Source: Lentisphaerae bacterium GWF2_44_16
GTDB lineage: Bacteria; Verrucomicrobiota; Lentisphaeria; Victivallales; GWF2-45-14
DNA length: 64,000 nucleotides
NCBI GenBank assembly: GCA_001803225.1
Contig: MHBF01000019.1
Location: forward strand, 25,622 to 89,621
Direction of reading: 5' to 3'
The notes beneath the pieces were generated by a model. It had not been told where the DNA came from, searched no databases, and saw only the letters and a list, made by a program, of their open reading frames with translations. Numbering within the stretch: position 1 is the first letter of the stretch; each line of letters starts with the position of its first letter. Position numbers and translations under genes: made by a program. Below, one piece after another: positions 4,941 to 53,822 of the stretch.

Positions 4941-4955
4941 AAGTTAAACCTTTTT

Positions 4956-9261: not shown

Positions 9262-9315
9262 TTTGAAATCTCCTGTAGTTTTTGAACTTATCCGGTGTTG
9301 CCGGGACTTTAAGAC

Positions 9316-9548: not shown

Positions 9549-9591
9549 CGCAAACGGAGTTGAGCGGCATTACAAAAAGGGACTCCGTCCC
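9549..9591. repeat. Hairpin repeat with 7-bp arms ACGGAGT/ACTCCGT and a 21-nt loop, ending in GGGACTCCGTCCC
   Basis: CGCAAACGGAGTTGAGCGGCATTACAAAAAGGGACTCCGTCCC aligns with 26729-26770 (CGCAAACGAAGTTGAGCGAAGATAATAAAAGTGACTTCGTCACC). The loop length is the same, and a G:C to A:T change is compensated on both arms. Confidence 0.75.
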
Positions 9592-9645
9592 CTTGATTTA
9601 AGAGAAAGGACTGGAATATTTAGTTTCATAGGGAGAAACAACGGG

Positions 9646-25282: not shown

Positions 25283-25892
25283 AGGAATATGCTGGCCTCC
25301 CGGTAAAGAGGTTCATGGTTATGGAAGCGATGTTGGAAGTATTCATCTGAGTTACGGTCGTACCGTCAATTTTAGCTTCCTGAAAAGAAAGCACAGGAAC
25401 CGTTGTGTTCTGAAGGGAACCGTAAGGACTGAAAATCAGTGAATTGGCTACAGTAGCGGTACCCGAAGCTATATCATCTATTTTAACACTGGAAACCGAT
25501 ATGGGATTTGTAACACTGTTTATAGCTACGCCAGTCGGCAACTGCTGCCAGTCTTCCCCTTCCGCCCAACTGCTGAAACTATATGTGCCAGCAACAGCCT
25601 TGGTAACATAACCTATTCTGTACTGGAAATAAGGAAATCCACTTGGAAATCCAGCATCCGTCTGAGGAAAAAACACAGCCACATATCTATTGCTGCTGAT
25701 TGCATAAGCCCTGGCCACGCCCAACTTGCCGCCCACCTGTCTTATGGCGGCATCAAGTCCCTGCCCCTTCACCATCTTTTCAAATGCCGGAAGCCCTATG
25801 CCCAATATTGTCGCTACTATTGCCATCACAACGAGCATTTCCACAAGGGTATAAGGAGCTCTCAAAAATCTGAATATTTTATTCCTTTTCAA
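25269..25892 (-). CDS. GspH/FimT-like minor pseudopilin
   Basis: I prefer the TTG start at 25890-25892 (AAGGAG 9 nt upstream). It gives (M)KRNKIFRFLRAPYTLVEMLVVMAIVATILGIGLPAF, colinear with the leader of 25934-26569. The track start at 25943 would add 17 codons that cross a repeat motif. LDAAIRQVGGKLGVARAYAISSNRYVAVFF is GspH-like. Confidence 0.55.
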   Translation of the reverse strand: MKRNKIFRFLRAPYTLVEMLVVMAIVATILGIGLPAFEKMVKGQGLDAAIRQVGGKLGVARAYAISSNRYVAVFFPQTDAGFPSGFPYFQYRIGYVTKAVAGTYSFSSWAEGEDWQQLPTGVAINSVTNPISVSSVKIDDIASGTATVANSLIFSPYGSLQNTTVPVLSFQEAKIDGTTVTQMNTSNIASITMNLFTGRPAYSYEQN

Positions 25893-25933
25893 TTTCCCTG
25901 ACTCCTTCCATTTTGCATTCCGCATTCTGAAAA

Positions 25934-26569
25934 TTATCTCCATGAACAGACATCGTCATATCCTTTACCCTCACCAAACATAGAATTTCTTCCGCCATCG
26001 TCAATTTTATTTGGCCCCAGTGAATAAATCAAAACAGTATTGCTGTAAGGCGCAGAGGGCGTAACGCACGCCGGAACCGCCCCCGCAGCATCAGCGGATG
26101 TTATAGCTCCATCATAGTTAGTATCCAAATATATCCTGAAAAGATTACCCCAGGGGTCCTGAAAATCGCCTTTTTGCGCATTTGTCATAGTTCCTGATAC
26201 ATCTGTAGTATAATTGCCATAATTACTCGGCACTTCAAGAAACCTATTTTTCTTGCCGTTTACATCTCCTACAGTCGTATTTGGCCCCTGAACACATGTC
26301 AAATAGGCAAAAAACTGTCTGTAATTAGAAGCATTTGAAACCATATTACCAAAACTGGGAAGATATCCGTAAATGGCTTCGTACTGTTTTATAGCAACAT
26401 TGATAGAATTCATTTGAGACTTAGTTTTTGTAATCTTGGCTGTTGTCGGATATTTTAAAACTACTGGTATAAGAATTCCCATGAGAATAGCAATAATCGC
26501 TACGACAACGAGAATTTCCACAAGCGTAAAAGGAGCTCTCAAAAATCTGAATATTTTATTTCTCTTCAT
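25934..26569 (-). CDS. GspG-like pseudopilin (paralogue 3)
   Basis: Start moved to the ATG at 26567-26569 (AGGAG upstream): MKRNKIFRFLRAPFTLVEILVVVAIIAILMGILIP. The C-terminus DPWGNLFRIYLDTNYDG...IYSLGPNKIDDGG...DDVCSWR resembles the GspG DPWGNPY...SLGxDG region. The track extension (MRFVAT...) is repeat DNA. Confidence 0.65.
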   Translation of the reverse strand: MKRNKIFRFLRAPFTLVEILVVVAIIAILMGILIPVVLKYPTTAKITKTKSQMNSINVAIKQYEAIYGYLPSFGNMVSNASNYRQFFAYLTCVQGPNTTVGDVNGKKNRFLEVPSNYGNYTTDVSGTMTNAQKGDFQDPWGNLFRIYLDTNYDGAITSADAAGAVPACVTPSAPYSNTVLIYSLGPNKIDDGGRNSMFGEGKGYDDVCSWR

Positions 26570-26593
26570 TTTGCTCCTGTATTTATTCTCTTT

Positions 26594-26770
26594 GGAGGGA
26601 TTTGCTTTGTCAAATCCGCCCGCAAAGCGGGATTTATCAATGGGACTCCGTCCCCCGGTTGCGACGAAGCGCAACCTTTCACGATTTCACCTACTTTTCA
26701 TTTCATTACGCATTCTTTACTTCCTCTTCGCAAACGAAGTTGAGCGAAGATAATAAAAGTGACTTCGTCA
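26594..26770. repeat. Dense mosaic of hairpin repeat modules in the spacer between two pseudopilin genes
   Basis: In order:
- GGAGGGATTTG-CTTTGT-CAAATCC (26594-26617)
- CCCGC-AAA-GCGGG (26618-26630)
- GGGACTCCGTCCC (26642-26654)
- GGTTGCG-ACGAAG-CGCAACC plus TTTCACGATT (26657-26686)
- CATTACGCATTCT (26704-26716)
- ACGAAGT-21 nt-ACTTCGT (26734-26768), which touches the stop codon of 26768-27427. Confidence 0.8.
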
Positions 26771-27427
26771 CCTCCACGAACAAACATCGTCTGTCCCCTT
26801 GGCGCCACCGAAAATAGAATTATTTCCGCCATCATTAGTTTTATTAGGCCCCAGAGAATAAATCAAAATGGTTCCGTTAAACGTAGTACTGACACATGCA
26901 GGAACTGAACCTGCCGCATCAGCGGATGTTATCGTTCCGTCATAGTTAGTATCTAAAAAAATCTGGAAAATATTGCCCCAGGGATCATAAAAATCACCTA
27001 CCTTGGCCCCAGTTACGGTTCCTTTTACAGCTGTAGTTGTCGTCCCGTAATTACTGGGAGCTTCAAGAAATCTGACTTTTCTGGCATTCACATCACCTGT
27101 GGCTGTCCCCGGTCCCTGTGCGCATGTCAGATAAGCAATAAGCTGTCTATATCTATCGGTGTTGGCGTTGCTGTTGTCTGTACTACTGGGCTTTGCGGTA
27201 GAAGCGTTTTGCAAGGCGCCGAAAACGGGTAAATACCCATAGGTAGATTCATACTGTTTCATCGCGGTAACCATGGCGTTCATCTGGCCTTTGGCTTTGG
27301 TTACTCTGGCTTTTTCCTGAACTTTCATGACTGCCGGTATCAAAATACCCATTAAAATAGCGATAATCGCAATCACAACGAGGAGCTCGATAAGCGTAAA
27401 TTTCAGTTTTCTCAGCTTTTTTCTCAT
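26768..27427 (-). CDS. GspG-like pseudopilin (paralogue 2)
   Basis: Start taken at the ATG at 27425-27427 (GGAG 9 nt upstream): MRKKLRKLKFTLIELLVVIAIIAILMGILIPAVMKVQEKARVTKAKGQMNAMVTAMKQYESTYGYLP. The C-terminus DPWGNIFQIFLDTNYDG...IYSLGPNKTNDGG...DDVCSWR is paralogous to 25934-26569. Confidence 0.65.
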   Translation of the reverse strand: MRKKLRKLKFTLIELLVVIAIIAILMGILIPAVMKVQEKARVTKAKGQMNAMVTAMKQYESTYGYLPVFGALQNASTAKPSSTDNSNANTDRYRQLIAYLTCAQGPGTATGDVNARKVRFLEAPSNYGTTTTAVKGTVTGAKVGDFYDPWGNIFQIFLDTNYDGTITSADAAGSVPACVSTTFNGTILIYSLGPNKTNDGGNNSIFGGAKGTDDVCSWR

Positions 27428-27479
27428 TATTGACATCTCCACTTACTTGAGGAATAAGCAACCGGGAAAAACAACTATT

Positions 27480-27641: not shown

Positions 27642-27788
27642 TTTTAACCACGGAACACACAGAAAACACGGAAAAAACTAAAATTTTAAGAAATGCCTTT
27701 TAAAATTCCGCATTCCGTCTTTCTTCCGTGTTTTCCGGCCCCGAAGGGGCTTTTATAATGGGACTTCGTCCCTTCCGTGGTTAAAAAA
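27642..27788. repeat. 147-bp element bounded by perfect 16-bp terminal inverted repeats (MITE-like or a large structured intercistronic RNA)
   Basis: TTTTTTAACCACGGAA (27642-27657) is the exact reverse complement of TTCCGTGGTTAAAAAA (27773-27788). A nested pair follows: GAAAACACGGAA (from about 27661) and TTCCGTGTTTTC (from about 27725). Internal hairpins are GCCCC-GAA-GGGGC (27739-27751) and GGGAC-TTC-GTCCC (27760-27772). The element starts immediately after the stop codon of 27789-28376. Confidence 0.7.
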
Positions 27789-28376
27789 TTACTTATTCGT
27801 GAAATTTGTAATGTCATCGCCCTTGCCCCAGGAGCCTTTTGCGGCAGAGGCGGTACCAAAATTAGCGTCTGAGACAGCCACAGCATCGCCAAGTTTGGCG
27901 TCTGAGCCCAATGAACCTATATCAAATGAAGTCCTGTTGAAAAGTCCGGGACAACGGTAATATATGGGAGAACCGAACGTGTCAACCAGCCAAGAACGAT
28001 TTGGAGCACCTGCGTCTTTCTGAGTATCTGCCGCCTTCAGGCTTTCGCCATCAATCATCAGGTTGAAAGCCGGATAATCAAGGTAAAAAGCGCAAACACG
28101 GGAAGTGGCGTGAATCTGATTCCTGCCAACGTTGACATCAGTCCAGTCCCCAGAAGATATTGCCGGTATATAATAGCCGTATTTGGATTTATAATTTTCA
28201 AGGGCGACTTCGACTTTTTTAATGAGTGCTCTGGTCTTGGATTCGGCGGACTTGCTGCTGGCATACTGGAAAACACCGATGGAAAGACCGAGAAGGACGG
28301 AAAGAATAAACATCACCGCGAGCAGTTCGACAAGCGTTACAAATGAACGCCTTGACTTTGTTTTATGCCAAATCAT
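27789..28376 (-). CDS. GspG-like pseudopilin (paralogue 1, first gene of the operon)
   Basis: 195 aa. MIWHKTKSRRSFVTLVELLAVMFILSVLLGLSIGVFQYASSKSAESKTRALIKKVEVALENYKSKYGYYIP has the GspG-type helix, followed by SLGSDAKLGD. Confidence 0.55.
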   Translation of the reverse strand: MIWHKTKSRRSFVTLVELLAVMFILSVLLGLSIGVFQYASSKSAESKTRALIKKVEVALENYKSKYGYYIPAISSGDWTDVNVGRNQIHATSRVCAFYLDYPAFNLMIDGESLKAADTQKDAGAPNRSWLVDTFGSPIYYRCPGLFNRTSFDIGSLGSDAKLGDAVAVSDANFGTASAAKGSWGKGDDITNFTNK

Positions 28377-28741: not shown

Positions 28742-31189
28742 ATGCGTTTTCAATGTCCATTTTGCCGCGGAATAGTGGCGGTTGAAAATTCAGACTTGGG
28801 TATAGATGTGCAGTGCGGTTACTGCGGAGAAATCGTTACTGTCCCCTATTCGCGGGTTGCCACAGGCGCGGTTATAGCTGATTTTATCATACTTGAGGAA
28901 CTCGGCAGAGGCGGCATGGGAGTAGTTTATCTCACGCATCAGATTTCTTTGGACCGTCCGGCAGCGCTCAAGGTACTTTCCGATACTTACGCGAACAACG
29001 CGGAATTCGTAGTCAATTTCATCAAGGAGGCAAGGGCCGCCGCTAAACTCAATCATCCTCACATTGTACAAGCTTACGCGGTTGGTGAAGACGAAGGCAT
29101 TTTCTATTTCGCGATGGAAAATATCGACGGCGAAACAATGAAGAATGTCATAAAGCGGGAAAAAGTTATTTCCATCGACAGGTCGATTACCATTATCCAG
29201 CAGATAGCTGAAGCTCTCGATTACGCGTGGAAAGAGCAACGCTTAATACACCGTGACATCAAGCCGGACAATATAATGCTCACAAAAAATGGCCGGGCAA
29301 AACTCGCTGACCTCGGTCTCTCAAGAGTGGCCGGAGAAATTGATGACTCTAATGATGATGAAGTAATGGGCACTCCTCAGTACATCAGCCCCGAACACCT
29401 CACCGGGGCCCCTATGGATATACGCAGCGACATTTACAGTCTGGGCGCGACATTCTACCACTTTGTAACTGGAAAATTTCCTTTTGAGGGAAGGACCGCT
29501 TCCGAAATAGCCAGAAAACATCTCGACGAAAAACTCGTTCCTCCAAATGAATTCAATCCTGATGTGCCTGAGTCCGTCAGCAAAATCGTAGTTAAAATGA
29601 TGGAAAAAAGCATCAAGGACCGCTATCAGGACGCAGCTGAACTCGTTGATGATTTGAGAATGGTACGCAGAAGTAAACTTCCATCTTCTTCTTCAGGAAA
29701 CATAACCGGCTCTTTTAAAAGGTCAGGCTCAAAGACCGAACGGGCACTTCAGTTGAGAAATACCAAAGGAAGCAAAACCGGACAGTTCAATGTTTCTAAA
29801 TCGGCAACTTCCGATATTCTGAATAAAAATCTTTCCGGCTCCGGGAGTCACAGCTTCAATGCCTCCGGAAATCCGGAAGAAACTCTGTACATGACCAATA
29901 CCGGAAAATCTTCAAAGGCCATAATCATTACGCTGCTGGTGCTTATAGTCGTTCTCATCGCGGGCGGCGCTTCAGCTTATTTCATCTACAAGCAGAAAGA
30001 AGCCAAAAGGCTCGAGGAAATCACAAGAAAAGAAGAGCTCGCGAAAAAAGAGGAAATAGCGAAGAAAGAAGAGCTTGCGAAAAAAGAGGAAATAACAAAA
30101 AAAGCCCAGGAAGAAGCTTCCAAAAAGAAAATGATAGAGCCCCTCCCTGCCAACGCAACACCGTTCATGAAAAAAATGCACGAAATACTCTCCTTCATAA
30201 ACGCGAATCCAAATAAAGAAGGTGAATTTCTTAAGAAATGCGAAGAACTTTTTTCCTCTTCACTGGTTCCATTCGGACAGGATGAAAAAGATAAACTGAA
30301 CGGGCTGAAGGGGCTTTACGTGGAAATCGACGAAAAAAGATTGGACAAACTGAGAAAAGCCGCAAAAGATAAATACGATGCCCTTATCGCCGATAAAAAA
30401 ACCGCGGAAGAAAAACGTTCAGCCGCAGACAAAATAAAGGCGGAAAAGGAAAGAAAAGAGAAAGAACTTCAGGCAAAGAAAGATAAAGCGGAGCAGGAAA
30501 AAAAGGAGCAAATGGAAAAGAAAATTTCCGAATATGTTGAAAAAATAGAGAGCGACAAAAACCTGATGCGCCGTACATATATCGATCTTGTCAAAAGAAA
30601 TGAGTTCAAAAGGGCCAGAGACACTTTCGCTTCTTCTCACGATGAACCGGCAAAAGCCAAGAACAATTATCCGGAAATAGAAAAAGCGGCGGCGGATTTC
30701 GATGCCTGGGGCAAAAAAATGCAGGAAGGCGTAGACCTCACTGAAAAACTCCATAAAATAGTAACTGACAGCGGTACGAAGCTTTCCGGTTCCACTGTTG
30801 AAATAAAAAGCGGCATGCTCGGTAAAATCGTCGATATCAGAAACGGAAATATAACTGTAAAATCACTTATCGACAGCAAAATCACTACTGTTCCCGTCTC
30901 GGAACTTGAAGTTAACTTTCTGGCCAAACTCCTGAAAAAGGCTTCCGAAAAAGTGGAGAATGGTTCCGAAGCGGCTTTTTACTATCTCCTGAACAATGGA
31001 GAATTCACGAAGGCCAGGGATTATGTCCCCGGTGAAGACTGGAAAAAAGAACTCAGCGATACCGCCTATGAATACTTCAAGCTGAAACTGAGTTTTGCCT
31101 CGGAAAAAGAAAAGGACGCCCTGGCCAGAAAATTCGGCGGCAATTCTGATTACAGAAGGGCCAAAAAGGATTCCCCTCACTCAAACTAA
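28742..31189 (+). CDS. Membrane Ser/Thr protein kinase with an N-terminal zinc ribbon and a long extracytoplasmic coiled-coil region
   Basis: 815 aa.
- Zinc ribbon: CPFCRG...CGYCGE.
- Kinase motifs: GRGGMGVVY, AALKVL, HRDIKPDNIML, DLGLSR, GTPQYISPE.
- One TM segment: AIIITLLVLIVVLIAGGASAYFIY.
- Then KKEELAKKEEIAKKEELAKKEEITKK and a Lys/Glu-rich coiled coil. Confidence 0.85.
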   Translation: MRFQCPFCRGIVAVENSDLGIDVQCGYCGEIVTVPYSRVATGAVIADFIILEELGRGGMGVVYLTHQISLDRPAALKVLSDTYANNAEFVVNFIKEARAAAKLNHPHIVQAYAVGEDEGIFYFAMENIDGETMKNVIKREKVISIDRSITIIQQIAEALDYAWKEQRLIHRDIKPDNIMLTKNGRAKLADLGLSRVAGEIDDSNDDEVMGTPQYISPEHLTGAPMDIRSDIYSLGATFYHFVTGKFPFEGRTASEIARKHLDEKLVPPNEFNPDVPESVSKIVVKMMEKSIKDRYQDAAELVDDLRMVRRSKLPSSSSGNITGSFKRSGSKTERALQLRNTKGSKTGQFNVSKSATSDILNKNLSGSGSHSFNASGNPEETLYMTNTGKSSKAIIITLLVLIVVLIAGGASAYFIYKQKEAKRLEEITRKEELAKKEEIAKKEELAKKEEITKKAQEEASKKKMIEPLPANATPFMKKMHEILSFINANPNKEGEFLKKCEELFSSSLVPFGQDEKDKLNGLKGLYVEIDEKRLDKLRKAAKDKYDALIADKKTAEEKRSAADKIKAEKERKEKELQAKKDKAEQEKKEQMEKKISEYVEKIESDKNLMRRTYIDLVKRNEFKRARDTFASSHDEPAKAKNNYPEIEKAAADFDAWGKKMQEGVDLTEKLHKIVTDSGTKLSGSTVEIKSGMLGKIVDIRNGNITVKSLIDSKITTVPVSELEVNFLAKLLKKASEKVENGSEAAFYYLLNNGEFTKARDYVPGEDWKKELSDTAYEYFKLKLSFASEKEKDALARKFGGNSDYRRAKKDSPHSN

Positions 31190-40520: not shown

Positions 40521-43500
40521 TCAGTTCCCGCCTTTATCATCGGTGTAAAAAACAAGACCATCCACCGGTTTGTATTTTTCCTCACCTGGAACTTTGACTG
40601 TTACTTCAAGTTTTTCCTCCGGCGTGTCCGTCCATATATCGACACGGATCGAATGGAGGCCCGGTTTCAATATCATTTCTTCAACAACGCGCGGCGCTCT
40701 TCCGTAAGTCCTCGGAATAAATTTCGGAGGATTTTCATCAATATGGACCACGCATGAAGAACGCCCGCTTATGTGGAAAGGATATTTCCCTTCCTTTTCG
40801 GCTTTAAAATAACCTTTGAACATAAAACTCGCGTGTTCGCTCCAATCAAGGGCCGGGACTTTCATATTGCCCAGTACCTCAGTCGCCGTCGGGGTCATGA
40901 GCAGCAGGTTCGGAAGATGCATCGGCCATACCCCTTTGTAAAAATTGAAAACCACTCCCGGTTTAAGGTTTTCAGGAACTTTGGAAAGAGGCTCGAAAAC
41001 AGTCAACCTTGTTTCAGCTTTCTTCTTTTTTGTCTCAACTGACATCATGGGTTTCAGGAAAGAATTTAAATCAAGGGCGAGAATGGATGCGTCGGAGACA
41101 ATTCCCGACTGTGACGTGCCGAGAAGAATATACGCCAGCTTGTCGGAAACGGCAAAACCTCGCAGAAATTTGCAGTCCTTTGAGAGGAATTTCGGATCAA
41201 CGGTAAATTTCAGGCCGCTCAGTTTTCCATCCCCCATGCCGAGAGCTTTGATTTCAAAGAAATTTTCGTCCAGCTGGGTTATTCTGAACAATTTTTCCCC
41301 GTTGTCAGTCGTAATAACAAAAAGGCGGTAGTTATTGTAGGCCGGATCCTGTTCCTCATTATTCGTAAAATCACCCAAAGGAGCGGAATTTACTTTTTTC
41401 AGAGAACCGTTTTTCATGTCGAAAACAAAATATCCCTCACGGAACTGAAACTGAATATTGCCACTGAAACCAAAATCGGAAGAAATGCCGTTCGTATCTC
41501 TCCTGCAACAGCATTTCCATTTTTTCTTTGCGATATTCATCTCATAGAGACCGGAATAATATGCTCTGGTGTTCCCCGAATTATACGTCCTGCTGTCTCT
41601 GGTGATTACACGTGAGGCAAGTATTCCGTTATCGGAACATGTCAGTGACACGGCATACCAAGGAGGACAATTGTCCAGAGGGGAAAGAGGCGGGTTACGC
41701 CTGCTGGAGGCAAGCAGTTCCATGTCACCGTTTTTTATATCAATCCGCACAATTGCAGCCGGAATTGTATTTGCGCCGGCATCATCCCGTGTGCGCACTT
41801 TTCCATTTGAAACGTAAAGTTTGTCATTAAAGAGATGTCCGTATGAGAGATAGAGGCTTCCCCGTGAAAAAGCCATCGCGGTTACTTTTTGGAAACCGCT
41901 GTCTTTCAGTTCTCTCCATTCACCATTCTTTCCCATAACACTGACTTTGCCGTCATGAGAGGAATAATAGATATCGTCTCCGGCTTTGAGCATTATCCCC
42001 GCGCGTATTGTCTGAAACGGAAAATAACCGGAAGCGGCTATGTCGGGCACTTGAAATCCTACTGAAGCGGGAGCTTCGACAAAATATGGTTTGGGACCGT
42101 CTTCAAGATAATAGATTAGATATGCCTTCCCGCTTCTCAAATTTTTATTGCCTCTGCTGAATGAACCTGAAATTTGCAGACAGCCGCTACTGAAGCCCAT
42201 ATCTTCCGTTTGAAAATACGGCGCCGAGCCTTGCGGACAAAGGGCCGCCAGAGAAGAAGACATCACCGGCGATAAAACCGGGAACTCGGAATGACTGTTC
42301 TTTTCCGGACGGTAATCGGAAAGCTTCGCTATCCTTTCTCTTATGATTTCATTGTACGAGACGGTCTGAACAGTATCAAGCACCGTTCCCATATACCTGT
42401 AATAGTTATACCATGCCTCGGCAATTTTACGGTTGAGGGCCTCGTCTTTTCCCATCATGGCGTTCTGACGGAAAAAACAGCCCAACAGAATATTCACCTT
42501 TTCTCCGACGATAATATGACTCCGCGAAAACGCGTAGAGAAGCAGTTTAGCGATTATATCCCTGGAATAATTATCTGAAAAAAGCAGCGCTTCCGGACAA
42601 TCCCCCATTCTTCCGGAACCGTCTATAAGCTGGTCCCTGTATTTCCAGAGAGCATTCGATATGTCTTCGGAAGAGGCTTTTTTCCCGGCAAGCAGCAGCG
42701 CGTCTATCTTGCCTCTCGAAGTTCCGGAGACCTCCATCTGCTTCGCGAGTCTATCCAATAAAACATTGGAAGCCGCGGATCTTGAACCCCTCTGAACCTG
42801 TCGCTCATTGAGCATTTTTTTCCTGTTCATGACCATCAGGATATTGTAATGCATTTCCGGCTGGAGCGGGAATTCCCTTGAAAGAATTCTCCTGTATTCC
42901 GCGAGGCGTTCTTCCGGTTTCTCGAAAAGGAGGTCTATCAGTGAATTCAGATAGGTAAAATAACATTTGATTATAGTCGATGAATTATCTCCTTTGTCCA
43001 TTGTCAAAGCCGCGGCTTTGCGCGAGAGAAGACAAACTAAGCTGACTTTTTCCCGTAACTTTGTTTTCTGTCCATCAGCGGCCAACGGTAATGAACTTTT
43101 AAGGAGTACTGCGGACGCGCGGAGCAGGTCATTTCCCAATGAACGCCAGTCCCGTTCGCCATAGAAATGCCCCGGCAGGGATTGAGGGCCAGCCTCTACA
43201 AATTTTATATAAATATCCAACGCCATCGATAACTTATCCAAATTCTCCATCAAAACAATTTCCGAGCTTTCAACTTCAAGCGATTTGATCGCTTTCTTAT
43301 TTTTTGTTCTGCCGCGCTTCTCCTGCTTTTCTTCCTCCCCTGTATAACCAAGTTCTCCGAGATAGGATTTTATCCTGAGAAAATCAATGACAGGCCCGGT
43401 TTTTCCGAGAGCGTTTGCCGCGTCCGAGGCTTCGCGGGCGCGTTCAAAGGAACCTGCGCGGAGAAGCCATTGCGCCTCGCTGAAATAGAATTCGGCTTCC

Positions 43501-44390
43501 TTTTTCATATCCCATACGATTTTCGTATCGGCCATGGATTTTATGCCGAGCTTTTCGCTCAAAGGGGCAACCATGCTTTCAACAAGTCCTTTCAGGTCCA
43601 GAGTCGAACCGGAAAATTCCATCATTTCGGGTGACTTTTTTCCGGGCTTTCTCAGCCGGAGAGTAACTTTAACAGTACCTTTGCCGTCATGAAGGCTTTC
43701 CACACTGCCGTCAAGCATGCATGAACCCGTCCAGAAAGGATTATTATCAAGATTGAGTTCTTTTTCCCATGCGATGTTGCCCAGACGCCAACGCTCAAGC
43801 ACAACAAAACTTTTTTCATACATCAGACGTTGGGAAAGAAGAAGTGTAATTTTCCGTTCGAGTTCCTTTGACTCCGGCGAATCAACAGCGGCACGAATAT
43901 CAAGAATCGAAAGGGCGCTGATTTCATTACGGTCAAGTTTCAGTTTTGAAAAGAGAGGCTCGAATTCGAATTTCACGGCGTCCGCGAAATGGAACGCCTC
44001 TTTTGAAGGAGTATCCTGCGTCCAGACCCCGAGTATCGCCCCGGAGTCAGTCGCTACCAGACGCGCGCTCAGAATGTCCTTTCCTTCCCACTGAAAGGAT
44101 TTTATGACTATGACTGCCTGTGCTCCCAGCATAGTTCCTATCTTGACGGCGGCGGCTTCGTCGGAGAAGAGCGAAAATTTCTGTTCGGCAATGATTTTAT
44201 CAATCTCAGAACGTTCAACCATAACTATGCCGGGCCCTTTGGAAAGTCGCTCGACAAGGCAGTCTATTTCCGCGCGGTTTCTTTCTATATCGCCAAGTAT
44301 GGCAACGCGTGTCTGAGCGCTAATACTTAGAGAAGACAGAAACAGACATAGCAGAACAGCCGTAAACTTCGAAAAAAAAATTGAGAACAT
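40521..44390 (-). CDS. Large secreted multidomain protein: two CsgG/LpoB-like N-terminal modules, a helical repeat region, a beta-rich region, and a C-terminal PA14-like domain
   Basis: 1289 aa.
- Signal-like N-terminus: MFSIFFSKFTAVLLCLFLSSLSISAQ.
- First module: RVAILGDIERN...IVMVERSEIDKIIAEQKFSL...GAQAVIVIK...RLVATDSGAILG. A second similar module follows.
- C-terminus: PGVVFNFYKGVW...FMFKGYFKAEKEGKYPFHISGRSSCVVHIDE resembles PA14. Confidence 0.45.
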   Translation of the reverse strand: MFSIFFSKFTAVLLCLFLSSLSISAQTRVAILGDIERNRAEIDCLVERLSKGPGIVMVERSEIDKIIAEQKFSLFSDEAAAVKIGTMLGAQAVIVIKSFQWEGKDILSARLVATDSGAILGVWTQDTPSKEAFHFADAVKFEFEPLFSKLKLDRNEISALSILDIRAAVDSPESKELERKITLLLSQRLMYEKSFVVLERWRLGNIAWEKELNLDNNPFWTGSCMLDGSVESLHDGKGTVKVTLRLRKPGKKSPEMMEFSGSTLDLKGLVESMVAPLSEKLGIKSMADTKIVWDMKKEAEFYFSEAQWLLRAGSFERAREASDAANALGKTGPVIDFLRIKSYLGELGYTGEEEKQEKRGRTKNKKAIKSLEVESSEIVLMENLDKLSMALDIYIKFVEAGPQSLPGHFYGERDWRSLGNDLLRASAVLLKSSLPLAADGQKTKLREKVSLVCLLSRKAAALTMDKGDNSSTIIKCYFTYLNSLIDLLFEKPEERLAEYRRILSREFPLQPEMHYNILMVMNRKKMLNERQVQRGSRSAASNVLLDRLAKQMEVSGTSRGKIDALLLAGKKASSEDISNALWKYRDQLIDGSGRMGDCPEALLFSDNYSRDIIAKLLLYAFSRSHIIVGEKVNILLGCFFRQNAMMGKDEALNRKIAEAWYNYYRYMGTVLDTVQTVSYNEIIRERIAKLSDYRPEKNSHSEFPVLSPVMSSSLAALCPQGSAPYFQTEDMGFSSGCLQISGSFSRGNKNLRSGKAYLIYYLEDGPKPYFVEAPASVGFQVPDIAASGYFPFQTIRAGIMLKAGDDIYYSSHDGKVSVMGKNGEWRELKDSGFQKVTAMAFSRGSLYLSYGHLFNDKLYVSNGKVRTRDDAGANTIPAAIVRIDIKNGDMELLASSRRNPPLSPLDNCPPWYAVSLTCSDNGILASRVITRDSRTYNSGNTRAYYSGLYEMNIAKKKWKCCCRRDTNGISSDFGFSGNIQFQFREGYFVFDMKNGSLKKVNSAPLGDFTNNEEQDPAYNNYRLFVITTDNGEKLFRITQLDENFFEIKALGMGDGKLSGLKFTVDPKFLSKDCKFLRGFAVSDKLAYILLGTSQSGIVSDASILALDLNSFLKPMMSVETKKKKAETRLTVFEPLSKVPENLKPGVVFNFYKGVWPMHLPNLLLMTPTATEVLGNMKVPALDWSEHASFMFKGYFKAEKEGKYPFHISGRSSCVVHIDENPPKFIPRTYGRAPRVVEEMILKPGLHSIRVDIWTDTPEEKLEVTVKVPGEEKYKPVDGLVFYTDDKGGN

Positions 44391-44500
44391 TATCGCGCAT
44401 CCGTTTTAAATTAGCAGGTAGAATACCTGCACTTCGTGAAAAAACTTTGTTTTTTTCCGTACTGCCGCTCATTTCATTGCGGCAGAAAAAAGAAAAACAA

Positions 44501-44556
44501 ATAACAATTTCCTATACAATTAAATTAATCTCTGCGGCAGGATTGTCAATCAGCAA
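44501..44556. repeat. Composite intergenic repeat: a 27-mer shared with 9402-9428 fused to a 30-mer shared with 49638-49667
   Basis: ATAACAATTTCCTATACAATTAAATTA (44501-44527) and AATCTCTGCGGCAGGATTGTCAATCAGCAA (44527-44556). The latter is identical to, and in the same orientation as, 49638-49667. Confidence 0.85.
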
Positions 44557-44648
44557 AGCTCAATGCGCCAGCTGGTTCCTGATCTGGAAAAGGCAAGATC
44601 GGCAATCTACTCCCTTAAAAAAAATTCCACCTTTTTCCAAATCTTTAC

Positions 44649-44700
44649 TTGACAGGCATGAATTACAGATGTAATCATTAGCATGGATTACAATTGTAAT
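44649..44700 (+). promoter_or_regulatory. blaI-like promoter region with two BlaI/MecI-type TACA/TGTA operator dyads
   Basis: TTGACA (44649-44654). Dyads ATTACAGATGTAAT (44662-44675) and ATTACAATTGTAAT (44687-44700, a perfect palindrome). GGAG at 44703-44706 and ATG at 44715. The half-sites match the known staphylococcal bla/mec operator core TTACAnnTGTAA. Confidence 0.65.
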
Positions 44701-44714
44701 TAGGAGTAGATTTG

Positions 44715-45089
44715 ATGAAAAATATCCCCAAAATAACAGCCGCTGAATACGAGATAATGAAAATACTTTGGGATAATTATCCATTAACCGCAAATAAGAT
44801 AATCGAAACCTTGTCTTCCAAAACGCATTGGACGTCCAAAACTGTCCGTACCCTGATAAACAGGCTTGTAAAGAAAAAAGCCATCAAATACGAACAGGAT
44901 GGAAAAAGCTATCTCTATTCACCTGCTGTTTGCAGGAGTGAATGTGTCGCGGAGGAAAGCGCATCCTTTCTGAATCGCATGTTCGATGGAGCTTTAATGC
45001 CAATGCTAACCCATTTTGTAAAATCTAAGAAACTGAAACCGGAAGATATCGAAAAGCTTAAGTCTATTTTGGAAAGCGGGGAGGATTGA
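44715..45089 (+). CDS. BlaI/MecI/CopY-family transcriptional repressor
   Basis: ATG at 44715; the track starts 3 nt earlier at a TTG. ITAAEYEIMKILWDNYPLTANKIIETLSSKTHWTSKTVRTLINRLVKKKAIKYEQDGKSYLYSP is the canonical winged-helix core. Confidence 0.85.
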   Translation: MKNIPKITAAEYEIMKILWDNYPLTANKIIETLSSKTHWTSKTVRTLINRLVKKKAIKYEQDGKSYLYSPAVCRSECVAEESASFLNRMFDGALMPMLTHFVKSKKLKPEDIEKLKSILESGED

Positions 45090-45093
45090 TTAT

Positions 45094-46593
45094 ATGGACT
45101 TTTTACTTCACTGGATTGCGGCAAGTGCCGTAAAAGGAACGGTACTGGCAATTATTTTTCTTGTAGCTCAGGTTCTCTTTTCTAAACATATGAAACCGAG
45201 GTGGAAATATTTTATATGGCTCCTCGTGGCGGCAAGACTGATCATGCCTCCGGTGTTCCCTACTGATTTCAGTTTCTACAACCTTGAAAAATTTTATGGA
45301 AATAATGTTAACAAGGCAGTTCCGGCAACAATATCCCAAACGATTCCCGGGGCAAGCCAGGCAATGCTTATGGTATATGGGGCTTTTCAGTCAAAAACAA
45401 ATAAAGGTTTTCCGATAAAACATCTGCTTTTTGCCACATGGTTTGCCGGGGCTTTTTCACTTCTTTCGATCGTCCTGGCAAAAAACTGGCTTATACTTTT
45501 TAAAATAAGACGGATACAACCCAATACACAACCGAAATATCTTGCCCTGCTTGATGATTGTAAGAGGGAATTCAAAATACATTCTTCGGTACCACTCATT
45601 GAAACCAACATTATAAACACCCCTGCCCTGTTTGGCGTCATCAGGCCACGCTTGCTCCTGCCTGAAGGACTTGTCGATAAAATTTCAATGAATGAATTAA
45701 GACAAATTTTCATACACGAGCTTATACACCTGAAAAGAATGGACATTCTAATTAATTGGCTAGTTACATTTATACAGGTTATCCAATGGTTCAATCCTTT
45801 TGCATGGCTGGCGTTCAGTAAACTGAGAGAAGCAAGAGAAGAGGCTTGCGATGAAGCGGCATTGACTTTCCTTGGAAAAGAAAAGTCTTTGCAATATGGG
45901 CAGACAATTATTAAACTCCTGCAGTTCTGCAATCCAGAAAAAAGCATTACAGGCATGGTTGGCGTTCTTGAAGACAACAAGCAAATTGCGAGAAGATTGA
46001 AAATGATAAAAAGCTTCCATCGCTCTTCAAAATCTGCAACTGCTTTTTCATTATTTACATTAATCTTTACGGGAACCGTTTTTCTGACAGAAGCGTCCGA
46101 GGTAAAAGCTTACTCGAAAAAACATGCGAAACGGAAATTAGTGTCAGTAATAAGAAAAGACTTGAAAGTCGTTTCCCATTCTCCATTAATCAAGATGGAA
46201 GTTTTAAAAACGCCGACATCTTTTAACGCTGAAGCGCCTTTGCCTGAAAAGCCATTGGACACAGAAGAAATCCTGATGAAAAAACTTGAATCGATTGTAC
46301 TTCCAAACATTAAAATCGAAGAAATGGAATTGCCTGCCGCTCTAACGTTCCTTGAAGAAACTTCGAAAAAACATGATCCTGATGGCGGTGGAGTTGGCTT
46401 TGCCCTCCGGCTTAATGAAGAGCAATATACAAATATCCCGAAAATCTCAATTGTCAGCGATAATATAACTCTGAAAACCGCTATTAAAAATATATGTGAA
46501 AGTAGCGATCTGAAATGGGATATTAAAAAAGGCGTCATTCATATTTATCCACATGAAGAGCAGTCTTCAACAGAAGCTTTAGCAGCAAAATAG
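45094..46593 (+). CDS. M56-family (BlaR1-like) membrane metalloprotease / signal transducer with a non-PBP ectodomain
   Basis: 499 aa, starting 4 nt after the blaI-like stop. RWKYFIWLLVAARLIMPP, HELIHLKRMD (HExxH) and EACDEAAL are present. The C-terminal part of about 160 aa (IVLPNIKIEEMELPAALTFLEETSKK...ITLKTAIKNICESSDLKWDIKKGVIHIY) is too short and too unlike a penicillin-binding sensor domain. Confidence 0.75.
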   Translation: MDFLLHWIAASAVKGTVLAIIFLVAQVLFSKHMKPRWKYFIWLLVAARLIMPPVFPTDFSFYNLEKFYGNNVNKAVPATISQTIPGASQAMLMVYGAFQSKTNKGFPIKHLLFATWFAGAFSLLSIVLAKNWLILFKIRRIQPNTQPKYLALLDDCKREFKIHSSVPLIETNIINTPALFGVIRPRLLLPEGLVDKISMNELRQIFIHELIHLKRMDILINWLVTFIQVIQWFNPFAWLAFSKLREAREEACDEAALTFLGKEKSLQYGQTIIKLLQFCNPEKSITGMVGVLEDNKQIARRLKMIKSFHRSSKSATAFSLFTLIFTGTVFLTEASEVKAYSKKHAKRKLVSVIRKDLKVVSHSPLIKMEVLKTPTSFNAEAPLPEKPLDTEEILMKKLESIVLPNIKIEEMELPAALTFLEETSKKHDPDGGGVGFALRLNEEQYTNIPKISIVSDNITLKTAIKNICESSDLKWDIKKGVIHIYPHEEQSSTEALAAK

Positions 46594-46686
46594 CAAATGG
46601 CCCGTTTACTGTTAAAATTCAGTATAGATAAAGAATCAGGACTGCCGGAAAATTTAAATTATTTTGAAAAAAAAGGAGATTGACTC

Positions 46687-47292
46687 ATGAACAGAAAACA
46701 AAACAGCCTGGGAAAAAAACGGAAAACTAAGCGCCTGGCTTTGGAAGGAATAATTGTTTTTATAGCAGCATTGTTCATTTTCAGCATAATGACTAATCGT
46801 GATCCCGAAGAAAAAAAAGAGGAACACATAAAAAATTCTGTTTTGTCTCTGGTTAATAAAGAAGGTGAAACTGCCTCAGACATAGCCCAAGAGGGCATAG
46901 ATAATCTGATTTGCAAAAAAAATCGTAAAATATCAGAAGAACAACTGAAAGAAATCAATATGCAAATGAACAATATTTCCCCTGAAACAAGGACGCGTCT
47001 TGTAAAAGATATAATACAGACACGAATTGAAAAATTGAGGACTAAAATAGAAAATATGACGCAGGAGGAAAAGGAACAGTTACTTGAAGAAACATTAGGA
47101 AAGGTCCGTGACAGTTTCAACAATATGGATGAAAGAGAAAAAGGAAAACTTAGAGAACATATGAAATCAGAAGCGGGAAAACAGGATGTAAAAGAAGCTC
47201 TGAAGTTTTACCACGACAAGTTTTCATCCCAAGAACGGCAAAAAGCCGATCCGGTAATGTATGAAATTGTAAAAAATCTCAATGCTATTTGA
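46687..47292 (+). CDS. Hypothetical single-pass membrane protein with a Lys/Glu-rich helical domain
   Basis: 201 aa. GGAG 8 nt upstream of the ATG. Basic N-terminus, then the TM segment GIIVFIAALFIFSIM. No recognisable family. Confidence 0.45.
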   Translation: MNRKQNSLGKKRKTKRLALEGIIVFIAALFIFSIMTNRDPEEKKEEHIKNSVLSLVNKEGETASDIAQEGIDNLICKKNRKISEEQLKEINMQMNNISPETRTRLVKDIIQTRIEKLRTKIENMTQEEKEQLLEETLGKVRDSFNNMDEREKGKLREHMKSEAGKQDVKEALKFYHDKFSSQERQKADPVMYEIVKNLNAI

Positions 47293-47316
47293 CAAAAGAA
47301 GTTCAGCAGGCATAAA

Positions 47317-47832
47317 ATGAAAAAGTTATTCACGCTTGTAGAATTGCTCGTTGTGATTGCTATTATCGCTCTTTTGGGCGGTAGTGTTCTGTTTGCGGTT
47401 AAAAATTCAAGAGCACAAGCTAAAAAAACTTCCTGTCTGAGTAACCTCAAACAAATTGGGCTTCTGATAACCCAGTACGCCAATGATTACGAAGGAAGGC
47501 TTCCAATTGCACTTAGAATTGGCGAGAATTTCGATGATCCATACAGCATACCAAATCTTGTCAGCCCTGACAATAAAAAGCCCTTCATGTGCCCGTCTGA
47601 TATACGTACGGCATACGAAGGAAAAAACTATTTCAACATGTACGGCACAAGTTATGAATGGGATTCATGGTACAACGGCAGAAAAATAGAGGAGATAAGA
47701 ATAGAACTGACCGGTCAGAAATACCTCACTCCGCTTATGCTCGACGCCGAGAATTTCCATGGTACGTTGGGCAAAAACTATCTTTATTCCGACGGAAGAG
47801 TAACAAGAAAGATGGAGGACCCGATACAGTAA
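47317..47832 (+). CDS. Pilin-like protein with a prepilin-type N-terminal helix (DUF1559-like, short form)
   Basis: 171 aa. MKKLFTLVELLVVIAIIALLGG...AKKTSCLSNLKQIGLLITQYANDYEGRLP. The C-terminal NFHGTLGKNYLYSDGRV is H-X10-DG, close to the H-X9-DG motif. Confidence 0.7.
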   Translation: MKKLFTLVELLVVIAIIALLGGSVLFAVKNSRAQAKKTSCLSNLKQIGLLITQYANDYEGRLPIALRIGENFDDPYSIPNLVSPDNKKPFMCPSDIRTAYEGKNYFNMYGTSYEWDSWYNGRKIEEIRIELTGQKYLTPLMLDAENFHGTLGKNYLYSDGRVTRKMEDPIQ

Positions 47833-47833
47833 A

Positions 47834-48757
47834 ATGGCGATAAAAGCAAAAAACATTTCAAAGAGCTTTGGAAAACTCAAGGTACTAGAAAGTCTTGAAC
47901 TAAATATCCAAAAAGGTTCAGTGCATGGTTTTCTGGGCCCAAACGGAGCGGGCAAAACGACCGTAATCAGAATACTCTTGGGCCTGCTCTCACCGGATAC
48001 AGCTGAAATAGAAATCATGGGACACGATCTTTTTCTGCAAAGAGACTTGATCATGTCAAAAGTCGGCGCAATCGTTGAATATCCAGCCTTTTTTGAATAT
48101 TTGACAGCCTATGAAAATCTCCTCTACCTTTCTAGATTATCTTTCCACAAAATCAATAAAGCAACAATAGAAAACGCATTAAAAATAGCGGGATTAACAG
48201 AGGTTAAGAATAAAAAAGTGCTGGAATTCTCATACGGCATGAAACAGAGGCTGGGCATAGCTCTGGCAATGCTTCCGGATAATGAGTTGATTTTTCTTGA
48301 TGAACCGGCTAACGGACTTGACCCCTACGGCATCGTAGATATGAGAAAACTTATCAGAACGCTTTCCGAAGAATACGGCATTACCATATTCATTTCAAGC
48401 CACCTGCTTTCTGAAGTAGAACAGACCTGTGATTTTGTTACCATTATAGATAAAGGAAAAAAGGTATGCGAAGATAAAGTTGCCGACTTGATGAGAAAAC
48501 ATGAAAGCCTTGAAATTATTACGCCTGACAAAGAAAAATTCATGGCTTTTGCAACTAACCAAAATTTGAAAATTATTTATGAAGCGAAAGAAAAATACGG
48601 CATAAAATATTTTGTGGAAGGAAGAGAAGAACAAATTCCGGAACTTACAAAGAAGCTTATAAATAACAATATAAGAGTTTTCAAAACCGCAAAACATCAA
48701 AAGATATTGGAGGACATTTTTGTTGAAGTTACAAGTTCTAAAAATGCAGGCAACTGA
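47834..48757 (+). CDS. ABC transporter ATP-binding protein
   Basis: 307 aa, starting 1 nt after the pilin-like stop. Walker A GPNGAGKTT, signature-like FSYGMKQRL, Walker B LIFLDEPANGLD. Confidence 0.85.
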   Translation: MAIKAKNISKSFGKLKVLESLELNIQKGSVHGFLGPNGAGKTTVIRILLGLLSPDTAEIEIMGHDLFLQRDLIMSKVGAIVEYPAFFEYLTAYENLLYLSRLSFHKINKATIENALKIAGLTEVKNKKVLEFSYGMKQRLGIALAMLPDNELIFLDEPANGLDPYGIVDMRKLIRTLSEEYGITIFISSHLLSEVEQTCDFVTIIDKGKKVCEDKVADLMRKHESLEIITPDKEKFMAFATNQNLKIIYEAKEKYGIKYFVEGREEQIPELTKKLINNNIRVFKTAKHQKILEDIFVEVTSSKNAGN

Positions 48758-49583
48758 TCTGATCAGGCTTGAACTGGTAAAGAACATCAGACAGAAATAT
48801 TTTCTGGCCGGCTCTGGCTTAATACTCTTCTATACAGTATTAAGCTGTTTAGGCTTTATCACACACCGATTGATAAATAAAAACAATAAATTTGATGGCA
48901 TTTTCATTTCGGAACTTATGAACGGCATAACTTTTTCCATGTACTGTCTTGTGCCCGGTATTTACATGCTCATGCCTATGATCTTAGCCATCTTTACGGC
49001 AAGCAGTTTAGCGGGAGAGTTTCAAAATGGACAGTTGCGAACAACCCTTCTGCGTCCTGTTTCAAGATGGAAAATATTCCTCTGCAAATTCATATCAATG
49101 GGCCTGTACTCATTTACCATGTTTGCCATCCTTTTAACTGCCAGCTACCTTCTGGGAGCAATAATATTCGCCCCCAGCGGAGATGTAATAATATTGGGGC
49201 AGGTATTCCTTGGGGAAAATTCGATATTCATCTTGAAAGAATCAATTGCCTTACAACGCATGCTTATGTCTTATGCACTAGCATTTTTTTCATCGATATA
49301 TCTTGTAGCAATGTATATGATGGTAGCCGCCCTCACCAAAAAGGTTGCACACACAATAGTTGTTTCACTGGGAGTGTACTACACGAGTTACATACTTTTA
49401 TCAATACCTTTCATGAAATATATTCATCCTTTTCTCCCTACAAAATATCTTGCGGTTTGGCGATACCCGGTAATAGAAAATATCCCATGGGAACGCTTGA
49501 CATATGACATATTGATAGACACAGGATACATGTTTGCCTATATTGTAGTTGGAGTAATTTTATTCAATAATTCAGACGTTTAA
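48744..49583 (+). CDS. ABC-2-type transporter permease
   Basis: Start taken at the ATG at 48744 (MQATDLIRLELVKNIRQK), overlapping the ATPase gene end by 14 nt. About six TM segments. Confidence 0.6.
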   Translation: MQATDLIRLELVKNIRQKYFLAGSGLILFYTVLSCLGFITHRLINKNNKFDGIFISELMNGITFSMYCLVPGIYMLMPMILAIFTASSLAGEFQNGQLRTTLLRPVSRWKIFLCKFISMGLYSFTMFAILLTASYLLGAIIFAPSGDVIILGQVFLGENSIFILKESIALQRMLMSYALAFFSSIYLVAMYMMVAALTKKVAHTIVVSLGVYYTSYILLSIPFMKYIHPFLPTKYLAVWRYPVIENIPWERLTYDILIDTGYMFAYIVVGVILFNNSDV

Positions 49584-49637
49584 TTAAAAAATCGTGTAAA
49601 ACACAACAACTGCCAATAAAAAAAACTAAATTTAAAT

Positions 49638-49667
49638 AATCTCTGCGGCAGGATTGTCAATCAGCAA
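49638..49667. repeat. 30-mer direct repeat, the right-hand copy of 44527-44556
   Basis: AATCTCTGCGGCAGGATTGTCAATCAGCAA is identical to 44527-44556 and in the same orientation. Weaker similarity continues for about 13 nt (TCCCTAATGCTCC versus AGCTCAATGCGCC). It lies between the convergent stops of the permease and the AraC gene. Confidence 0.85.
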
Positions 49668-49670
49668 TCC

Positions 49671-50519
49671 CTAATGCTCCCGGCGGTTTCTTGCGCGGAA
49701 AAGGCTTGGTGAAAGGCCAAGCTTATTTTTGAAAATACGACTGAAATAAAATTGATCTCCAAAGCCGGTCAGGGAAGCTATTTTATGAATGCACGCGTCA
49801 CCAATCAGCAGTTCCTGCGCGCGGCTTAAACGGAAATTCAGAACATATTGATTGGGCGATATACCTGAGGCTTCCTGAAAAACTTTGAAAAAGCGCGACA
49901 CAGACAATCCCGCCAGTTCCGCAAGTTTGTCAACGGGAATCTGCTCCTGAAAATTCTGATGAATATACTCAAATACCGTCTGAAGCCTGTTGTAATGCTC
50001 AAGACGCGCCAGAGCATCCGCCTTGAGAGTGGAGAGCAGTATTATTTTTTCAAGCAGCCGCATGCCGATACCGGCCCTGAGAGTCGCGCTCAGAAGAAAA
50101 TTTTCCTGAGCTTCCGCCGCAAACAATTCTCTATTGAGTTCTCCTATGAAATCGCCGATTTTTCTGTCCATGACAAAAGGAGTCTCAAGCAGTACCAAGG
50201 GGTCTTGTCCTCCCATTATGGCGAAACGGAAAGAAATACCGCGCCGTCTGGTCTTTCCGACATCCGGATTCATTGACCGGTAAAGTATTCCCGCGCGAAT
50301 CAGGACAGCGCTTCCGGCACGGGCTTCCTGTTCTTTTGCGCCTTTGTGCTGAAAAATCTGATCGCCGCCGATATACTGATTTATCGCGTGAAGCGCGCGC
50401 CTGATATATGTGCGGCTCTCATGATGCGGACGCAAGAGCACATGGGAAGGCGCCAGGTATTCCGTCCGCATACTGCGCAGAATAATGTCAATGGTTTTCG
50501 TTTCGGGCTTCATACTCAA
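49671..50519 (-). CDS. AraC-family transcriptional regulator
   Basis: 282 aa. C-terminal double HTH: LAELAGLSVSRFFKVFQEASGISPNQYVLNFRLSRAQELL...IASLTGFGDQFYFSRIFKNKLGLSP. Confidence 0.85.
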   Translation of the reverse strand: MSMKPETKTIDIILRSMRTEYLAPSHVLLRPHHESRTYIRRALHAINQYIGGDQIFQHKGAKEQEARAGSAVLIRAGILYRSMNPDVGKTRRRGISFRFAIMGGQDPLVLLETPFVMDRKIGDFIGELNRELFAAEAQENFLLSATLRAGIGMRLLEKIILLSTLKADALARLEHYNRLQTVFEYIHQNFQEQIPVDKLAELAGLSVSRFFKVFQEASGISPNQYVLNFRLSRAQELLIGDACIHKIASLTGFGDQFYFSRIFKNKLGLSPSLFRARNRREH

Positions 50520-53697: not shown

Positions 53698-53713
53698 ACG
53701 TCAAAAAAATGCC

Positions 53714-53781
53714 GGCGATGACGGAGCATCGCCCTCCACGATTTTACACATAACGGGGAGGGATTTGCGTCGTCAAATCCG
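53714..53781. repeat. Intergenic hairpin-repeat element, a compensated variant of 9316-9392
   Basis: GGCGATG-ACGGAG-CATCGCC plus CTCCACGATT (53714-53743). The stem CCCTCCACG/CGGGGAGGG has one mismatch. GGAGGGATTTG-CGTCGT-CAAATCCG follows (53757-53781). Confidence 0.8.
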
Positions 53782-53822
53782 TCTTTGATTTAGATAAGAA
53801 TAAACAAAAAAGGAAAACGTAT

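Follow-up and report, generated by a model that had tools for sequence, protein, structure and literature searches.

When an element integrates into the 3′ end of a gene, the gene stays intact at the proximal junction, and part of its 3′ end is copied at the distal junction; cis-mobilizable elements (CIMEs) show the same geometry (PMC5704250). CIMEs and integrase-less islets derive from integrative and conjugative elements (ICEs) or integrative and mobilizable elements (IMEs) located in gene 3′ ends, such as those of Streptococcus fda, tRNA-Lys, and others (PMC5704250). Here, we describe a locus that invites comparison with these systems in Lentisphaerae bacterium GWF2_44_16, a groundwater organism, on a 64,000-nucleotide stretch (contig MHBF01000019.1, positions 25,622 to 89,621; assembly GCA_001803225.1) that was analyzed as a whole and is called the window below. 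Six genes enclosed by a direct repeat lie there between an AraC-family regulator gene and a gene for a 1,289-amino-acid (aa) protein. We consider it fairly probable that a CIME-like islet without a recombinase, spanning about 44557 to 49637, was acquired horizontally and entered by a Campbell-type event through an attachment (att)-like site at the AraC 3′ end.

The core of the direct repeat is the 30-nucleotide (nt) sequence AATCTCTGCGGCAGGATTGTCAATCAGCAA (also written as TTGCTGATTGACAATCCTGCCGCAGAGATT), which occurs exactly and on the same strand at 44527 to 44556 and 49638 to 49667, as the initial annotation of the stretch had recorded. The further partial similarity of about 13 nt that was noted with it is genuine, but its extent was underestimated: a repeat search and local alignment define a full direct repeat of approximately 77 nt with 79% identity (44518 to 44594 versus 49629 to 49705), composed of a 9-nt extension (7 of 9 identical), the core (30 of 30), and a 38-nt arm (24 of 38, or 63%; chance probability of at least 24 matches, 7e-6). 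Past the 77 nt, the identity between the copies is random (27%), and no significant AraC remnant was found beyond the 38 nt, where identity is only 27 to 43%. In the right, attR-like copy, the arm consists of the real last 11 codons and the stop codon of the host AraC gene (49671 to 50513, minus strand), whose stop lies 3 nt from the right core. The corresponding 38 nt of the left, attL-like copy (44557 to 44594, minus strand; CTTTTCCAGATCAGGAACCAGCTGGCGCATTGA) read in the same register LFQIRNQLAH*, the tail of a 77-aa minus-strand open reading frame (ORF), versus LFRARNRREH* for the real AraC end, and the similarity stops at GCCTTTTCC. By this alignment, the left repeat carries a pseudo-3′ end of an AraC gene, with the exact length and register of AraC and no insertions or deletions (indels). 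The mismatches are unevenly distributed over the repeat, with 14 of 38 positions differing in the AraC-like arm and none of 30 in the core (Fisher P = 1e-4), and those of the arm form multi-nucleotide clusters separated by perfectly conserved blocks. No further core copy occurs in the window at up to 3 or up to 6 mismatches (chance expectation, 0). RNA folds at the repeat gave z-scores of +1.2 to −1.6, with no stable fold of the core, and Rfam returned no match above threshold; the window contains no tRNA genes, and the block has no terminal inverted repeats.

The repeats bracket exactly six co-directional genes on the plus strand, a gene set that had been read from the sequence at the outset and was confirmed. 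They encode a BlaI-like repressor (44715 to 45089; Penicillinase_R, PF03965, E = 1e-35), an M56 BlaR1-like membrane metalloprotease (45094 to 46593; PF05569, E = 9e-55) with a HELIH motif in its translation, a 201-aa protein (p201; 46687 to 47292), a prepilin-type N-methyl/DUF1559 pseudopilin-like protein (47317 to 47832), an ABC transporter ATPase closest to the lantibiotic-protection and DrrA subfamilies (47834 to 48757), and an ABC-2 family permease (48744 to 49583). p201 has an N-terminal hydrophobic stretch and a charged remainder and belongs to a small uncharacterized family with 46 representatives among 1.84e9 proteins. Only 92 nt and 54 nt at the two ends of the block are non-coding, the rest being filled by the six intact genes. 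Pfam and NCBIfam searches detected no recombinase, relaxase, or type IV secretion system domain in the six block proteins; the lack of an integrase or transposase, as first reported, extends to the 42 other ORFs scanned (ATG initiated, at least 120 aa, of 47 in the non-overlapping set). Comparison of the block with plasmids gave generic ABC ATPase similarity only, that with phages gave nothing, and the ABC-2 profile found no match in viral contigs.

The composition of the block sets it apart from its surroundings, and the AT richness originally ascribed to it was borne out. Its G+C content is 0.380 versus 0.446 for the rest of the window, the lowest value among all 5.08-kb windows (mean, 0.442; standard deviation, 0.019). 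The G+C content at third codon positions (GC3) of the block genes is 0.392 versus 0.477 for the other genes (Mann-Whitney P = 0.0016), with the immediate neighbor genes at 0.486, 0.512, and 0.557. The discontinuity that had been looked for in codon usage is confined to G+C and GC3, as relative synonymous codon choice does not distinguish the block from the other genes (P = 0.66). The G+C difference of the block is real but modest.

The contigs of AraC homologs with 98, 93, 87, 78, and 76% aa identity were compared with the window. The AraC gene is paired divergently with an MR_MLE gene in all relatives fetched. In contig L009 (AraC, 93%), from groundwater and the same BioProject family, a single core (28 of 30 identical; L009:1080-1107) comes after the AraC stop, and then TAATTTAATCGTAAGGAAATTGTTAG and the start of a hairpin, the sequence that precedes the left repeat in the window. 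In contig L007 (AraC, 87%), the order is AraC stop, a single core (TTAATGATTGACAATCCCGGTGCAGAGATT; 25 of 30; L007:3572-3599), 38 nt, and the ATG of the 1,289-aa homolog, so the flanks are 109 bp apart by BLAST versus 5,304 bp in the window. In both relatives, the 1,289-aa gene (40521 to 44390, minus strand, in the window) directly follows AraC, and the two loci read as empty sites with a single core, which is the arrangement between these two genes that the initial annotation had anticipated. The closest relative, L008 (AraC, 98%), has a different structure: AraC is followed by a degraded core (a 6-nt deletion plus substitutions) and by about 40 nt matching 49598 to 49637 of the window, after which the sequence jumps to the last approximately 50 codons of the 1,289-aa gene. 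The counterpart of 40668 to 49597, comprising the block and almost the whole 1,289-aa gene, is thus missing as one 8.9-kb deletion (L008:1237-1340), although the right-end sequence of the insert (49598 to 49637) is kept beside the core. The tree of AraC synonymous divergence (Ks) joins the window and L008 at 0.195, L009 at 0.50, and L007 at 0.78. Since L008 shares the junction of AraC, core, and insert end, this tree places the gain of the block on the stem of the window and L008, after the L009 split, and the simplest history is a gain there, with a secondary loss of 8.9 kb in L008. In more distant relatives (L003 and L004 to L006), other genes lie downstream of AraC, and both block and core are absent. 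One of these contigs (L004:243-2770; GCA_964651145.1; AraC, 78%) also encodes a tyrosine integrase and a split ISL3 transposase, located 2 to 5 kb beyond the MR_MLE gene, on the opposite side from the insertion site.

The same operon was found elsewhere. The closest BlaR1 homolog outside the window population, with 51% identity, lies on metagenome contig L011 (also L012), where all six genes occur in the same order, with aa identities of 71% (BlaI), 51% (M56), 48% (p201), 64% (pilin), 65% (ABC ATPase), and 67% (ABC-2). Other close ABC-2 homologs (P0042 to P0044) have 58 to 68% identity. The L011 operon resides in an unrelated neighborhood, beside a co-directional, non-orthologous AraC-family gene (29% identity); the core is absent from L011, and no convincing direct repeats flank the operon there. 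A 23-nt direct repeat (91%; GCAAAGCGTCCGCAAATTATTTT) was observed in L011 at 1381 to 1403, in the AraC-blaI intergenic region, and at 3500 to 3522, at the 3′ terminus of the M56 gene. A four-gene cassette (p201-like protein, DUF1559/N-methyl pseudopilin, ABC ATPase, and ABC-2 permease) without blaI or the M56 gene is widespread in metagenome-assembled genomes (MAGs) of Lentisphaerae, Victivallales, and Kiritimatiellota, as seen in species-representative genomes scanned with a profile and in three additional contigs; about 10 MAGs carry it in differing neighborhoods (L013 to L025; for example, L016:7953-10822, L014:5386-8297, and L015:651-3706). In seven four-gene loci, the G+C content of the cassette matches that of the flanks within approximately 0.02, whereas the six-gene versions differ from theirs by −0.066 in the window and +0.056 in L011, in each case toward 0.38 to 0.41. 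This contrast between a compositionally native four-gene cassette and deviating six-gene versions supports the view that the version equipped with BlaI and BlaR1 may be the one that travels.

The insertion of att type, or mediated by the repeats, that was suggested initially is therefore backed by two empty sites, a deletion derivative that shares one junction, a compositional break, and a mosaic repeat. In the minus-strand direction, the ancestral locus would have consisted of AraC, its stop codon, the 30-nt conserved element, and the 1,289-aa gene. The incoming DNA, circular or repeat ended, would have carried a self-contained six-gene operon and an att-like stretch in which a mimic of the terminal 38 nt of an AraC gene preceded the same 30-nt core. 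A single Campbell-type crossover inside the identical core would then have put the element between AraC and the 1,289-aa gene and left AraC intact. Such a crossover would join the host AraC end to the right core and the right end of the insert, and the arm of the element to the left core and the host flank, which is the observed arrangement; it would yield a 77-nt attR beside AraC and a 77-nt attL with a diverged, element-borne AraC-like arm. The recombinase may have been supplied in trans or lost, as in the CIME state, or RecA may have acted on the 30-nt identity.

The divergence of the AraC-like arm bears directly on this scheme. With the insertion dated at Ks/2 = 0.10 to 0.25, the divergence of the remnant compared with neutral decay gives P = 3e-6 to 0.09; when the remnant is taken to hold 12 to 14 differences in 38 nt, P is 0.02 to 0.27 at the oldest allowed age and <1e-4 at the youngest. 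The concentration of mismatches in the arm (14 of 38, against 0 of 30 in the core), their excess over neutral decay, and the lack of a closer ortholog fit an arm that arrived already diverged. Several observations weigh against insertion of a mobile islet through the core. Neither a recombinase nor an attP circle or excision product was seen, and the six genes are tightly packed, with no trace of a decayed mobility module. No donor of the arm was found, none of the known ortholog 3′ ends being closer to the remnant than the window's own AraC. The left junction was seen in one lineage only (several assembly records from one population) and in metagenome assemblies, and the core copy count covers the 64-kb window rather than the whole genome. 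In addition, the identity of the core in both copies could reflect selection instead of a recombination core.

This last point leads to an alternative in which a replicative, template-switch, or illegitimate event copied 77 nt of host DNA at insertion, after which the useless AraC fragment decayed and the core was kept as the promoter of the 1,289-aa gene. The core is indeed constrained in the relatives: its identities of 28 of 30 and 25 of 30 across Ks values of 0.5 to 0.8 exceed those of synonymous sites, with 2 of 30 (L009) and 5 of 30 (L007) core differences where the proportions of synonymous differences are 0.37 and 0.49 (P = 2e-4 for L009). In the empty sites, the core is the only or the best sigma-70-like promoter match reading into the 1,289-aa gene (TTGACA-16-TATTTT, 10 of 12, in L007; TTGAAA-16-TATTTT in L009), and it probably forms the −35 element and spacer of the promoter of that gene. 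The indel-free register of the remnant, the absence of a recombinase, and the state of the 14th remnant position (C, as in L009 and L007) would also suit a duplicated host sequence. However, the 12 to 14 differences in the remnant lie above the neutral expectation unless the insertion took place at the oldest allowed age, and they fall in clustered multi-nucleotide blocks. The right-hand core, which would point antisense into the ABC-2 gene and has no evident function at its position, shows 0 changes where about 3 are expected (P ~0.05), yet the same copy has decayed in L008. A target duplication of 77 nt is also atypical of any known insertion mechanism. On this balance, duplication at insertion appears unlikely, without being negligible.

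The polarity of the event could also be reversed, with the block and its repeats being ancestral to the clade and L009 and L007 having become empty by precise deletion between the repeats. Direct repeats of 30 to 77 nt are good deletion substrates, and L008 shows that the locus does suffer deletions. This history would nevertheless need two independent precise losses in successive outgroups, it leaves the low G+C and GC3 of the block and the origin of the repeat unexplained, and the distant relatives L003 and L004 to L006 have neither block nor core; we regard it as distinctly improbable.

We hold it to be very unlikely that the 30-mer belongs to a dispersed family, either regulatory (such as a promoter or operator common to several genes) or resembling repetitive extragenic palindromic (REP) sequences, and flanks the operon by chance, with no insertion through it. 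The core is promoter-like and conserved, and REP-like repeats are present between genes of this genome, as is a further exact pair, that of a 27-mer. Against this, only two core copies exist in 64 kb even when 6 substitutions are allowed, the similarity continues in register into the AraC coding sequence, and the relatives have exactly one copy and no block. A degenerate core scan of JGI metagenomes gave a single match (L010), which lies within an unrelated coding region and was dismissed as chance, and the same scan of viral contigs gave no match; within the 64 kb and these collections, the possibility raised at the start that the core is a common REP found no support. A reading of the core as a REP or as a miniature inverted-repeat transposable element (MITE) has against it the two copies in 64 kb, the single orthologous copy in relatives, and the lack of a stable fold.

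We give still less credence to an assembly artifact, in which a free circle and a chromosome, each with a single core, would have been threaded together. The identical stretch is short (30 to 39 nt), and a single population supplied every record of the occupied site, but that stretch is far below read length, several deposited assemblies agree on the structure (L002, a separately deposited ENA record, follows the window collinearly for 18.5 kb with 2 mismatches), and the independent sample L008 carries the AraC-core-insert junction. An integrative mobile element exploiting Xer (IMEX) at a dif-like site, with the host XerC and XerD replacing the missing integrase, is the least credible and can hardly be entertained: the lack of an integrase, direct repeats of about 30 nt, and the cumulative GC skew, which reaches a local minimum near 45 kb, would be in keeping with it, but the core, set against the dif consensus, has neither two 11-nt arms around a 6-nt spacer nor a XerD arm resembling TTATGTTAAAT, the repeat runs into the AraC coding sequence, and a GC-skew minimum marks an origin-like point and not a terminus. 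Insertion of a transposon or insertion sequence was rejected, with no terminal inverted repeats, a 77-nt repeat that is not a short target duplication, and no transposase.

Returning to the mobile islet, its cargo can be read as a signal-inducible export module. A sigma-70-like promoter (TTGACA-18-AATCAT with TG) is predicted for the operon at 44649 to 44678 on the plus strand, and two putative BlaI/MecI-type operator palindromes, ATTACAGATGTAAT (44662 to 44675) and ATTACAATTGTAAT (44687 to 44700), were read from the sequence between 44662 and 44700 on the same strand. L011 has the candidate operators ATTACGCATGTAAT and ATTACACATGTAAT (ATTAC-N4-GTAAT) at the same place and an equivalent TTGACA upstream of blaI. 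BlaI would sit on the two ATTACA-NN-TGTAAT operators (ATTACAnnTGTAAT), the M56 protease would inactivate it on a signal and relieve repression, and induction would express the ABC-2 exporter, the pseudopilin-like protein, and p201. Only residues 10 to 346 of the M56 protein match BlaR1 models. The class D beta-lactamase-like, penicillin-binding sensor domain is absent from this protein, and its C terminus gave no transpeptidase match; in its place stands a C-terminal domain of approximately 190 aa, part of which (residues 386 to 492) shows weak similarity to a secretin N-terminal region. Lacking a penicillin-binding sensor domain, the protease presumably responds to something other than a beta-lactam.

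A bolder proposal would make the six-gene operon the cargo of an undescribed class of recombinase-less Lentisphaerae cassettes, which would home to the junction of an AraC 3′ end and the next promoter via an att of about 77 nt mimicking both and would be moved in trans by an unlinked recombinase. Such a class would account for the finding that both known six-gene copies adjoin an AraC-family gene and are compositionally foreign. We put it forward as a speculative and rather improbable extension.

Several other features of the window deserve mention. The 27-mer ATAACAATTTCCTATACAATTAAATTA (44501 to 44527) that is fused to the left core copy does have the exact second copy at 9402 to 9428 that was initially reported. 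Both copies have sharp edges and lie 110 to 140 nt upstream of the start of a minus-strand gene (a DegT-type aminotransferase gene, 7978 to 9261, and the 1,289-aa gene). The 44.5-kb copy is present in L009 with 3 differences, which places the 27-mer in the ancestral sequence between AraC and the 1,289-aa gene rather than in the insert. The pair may represent a regulatory site common to both loci or a very small repeat. Between it and the 1,289-aa gene start, a long imperfect hairpin (44446 to 44501) has 23-nt arms, 78% complementary, and a GC-rich center (CTGCCGC/GCGGCAG), and it is partly conserved in L009; with a T-run before it and an A-run after it on both strands, it would not act as a terminator in either direction. 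The 1,289-aa protein itself matched no NCBIfam family and resembles CsgG only weakly, at its N terminus, and no relatives were found in the species-representative genome set (GTDB). Several families of short GC-rich, REP-like hairpin repeats, such as CGGTTGCGACGAAGCGCAACC, GGAGGGATTTGC.TCGTCAAATCCGT, and GGGACTCCGTCCCC, occupy intergenic positions (9315 to 9393, 9563 to 9592, 26591 to 26686, 26743 to 26772, 27744 to 27773, and 53713 to 53782). Tandem small paralogous genes with prepilin-like N termini and no Pfam match lie at 25269 to 27436 and 27789 to 28376, and their N-terminal coding DNA resembles that of the pilin-like gene of the block as an inverted repeat (27354 to 27401 versus 47328 to 47375; 83%). 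Three tandem paralogous genes (496, 522, and 488 aa; 3450 to 7975), 70 to 78% identical at the nucleotide level in parts, are weakly similar to the neutral ceramidase N-terminal domain, and a fourth related gene lies at 2170 to 3453. An 815-aa Ser/Thr protein kinase gene (28742 to 31189) contains an 18-nt (6-codon) tandem repeat at 30014 to 30085 that encodes EEI/L-xKKEEL-AKK units.

The locus offers a clean and datable case of gene gain in an uncultivated bacterium of the Planctomycetes-Verrucomicrobia-Chlamydiae (PVC) group, in which one occupied site can be set beside two empty sites and a deletion derivative, with an att-like repeat that would mark the place of the crossover. It suggests that whole regulated operons can move in the Lentisphaerae without a recombinase of their own, and it flags a conserved, uncharacterized four-gene module whose mobile form would have recruited a switch of the BlaI/BlaR1 type with a sensor for something other than a beta-lactam.

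Among described systems, CIMEs are the closest: as in these, the islet is flanked by attL and attR repeats with a partial 3′ end of the target gene, the target gene is intact, integration and transfer genes are missing, the cargo is adaptive, and close relatives vary in whether they carry the element. Unlike CIMEs, the islet has no decayed mobility genes, its target is an AraC-family regulator gene in the Lentisphaerae, its core coincides with a promoter-like element of the downstream host gene, and its mobilization is putative. We know of no cognate ICE or IME and no integrase of this att specificity. The operon resembles BlaI/BlaR1 (MecI/MecR1) modules in having a Penicillinase_R repressor gene followed by an adjacent, co-directional gene for an M56 HExxH protease and in its paired putative operators of the TACA/TGTA type, which overlap the predicted promoter and appear conserved in L011. 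Those modules regulate beta-lactamase or PBP2a, whereas the islet operon does not, its sensor not being penicillin binding and its genes encoding a pseudopilin-like protein, a small membrane protein, and an ABC-2 exporter. Compared with classical genomic islands, the islet is only 5.1 kb long, has no integrase, uses no tRNA, and consists of a single operon; it shares with them compositional deviation, flanking repeats, sporadic distribution, and coherent cargo. It is a real but fairly ordinary small genomic island and does not overturn the current picture of genomic islands.

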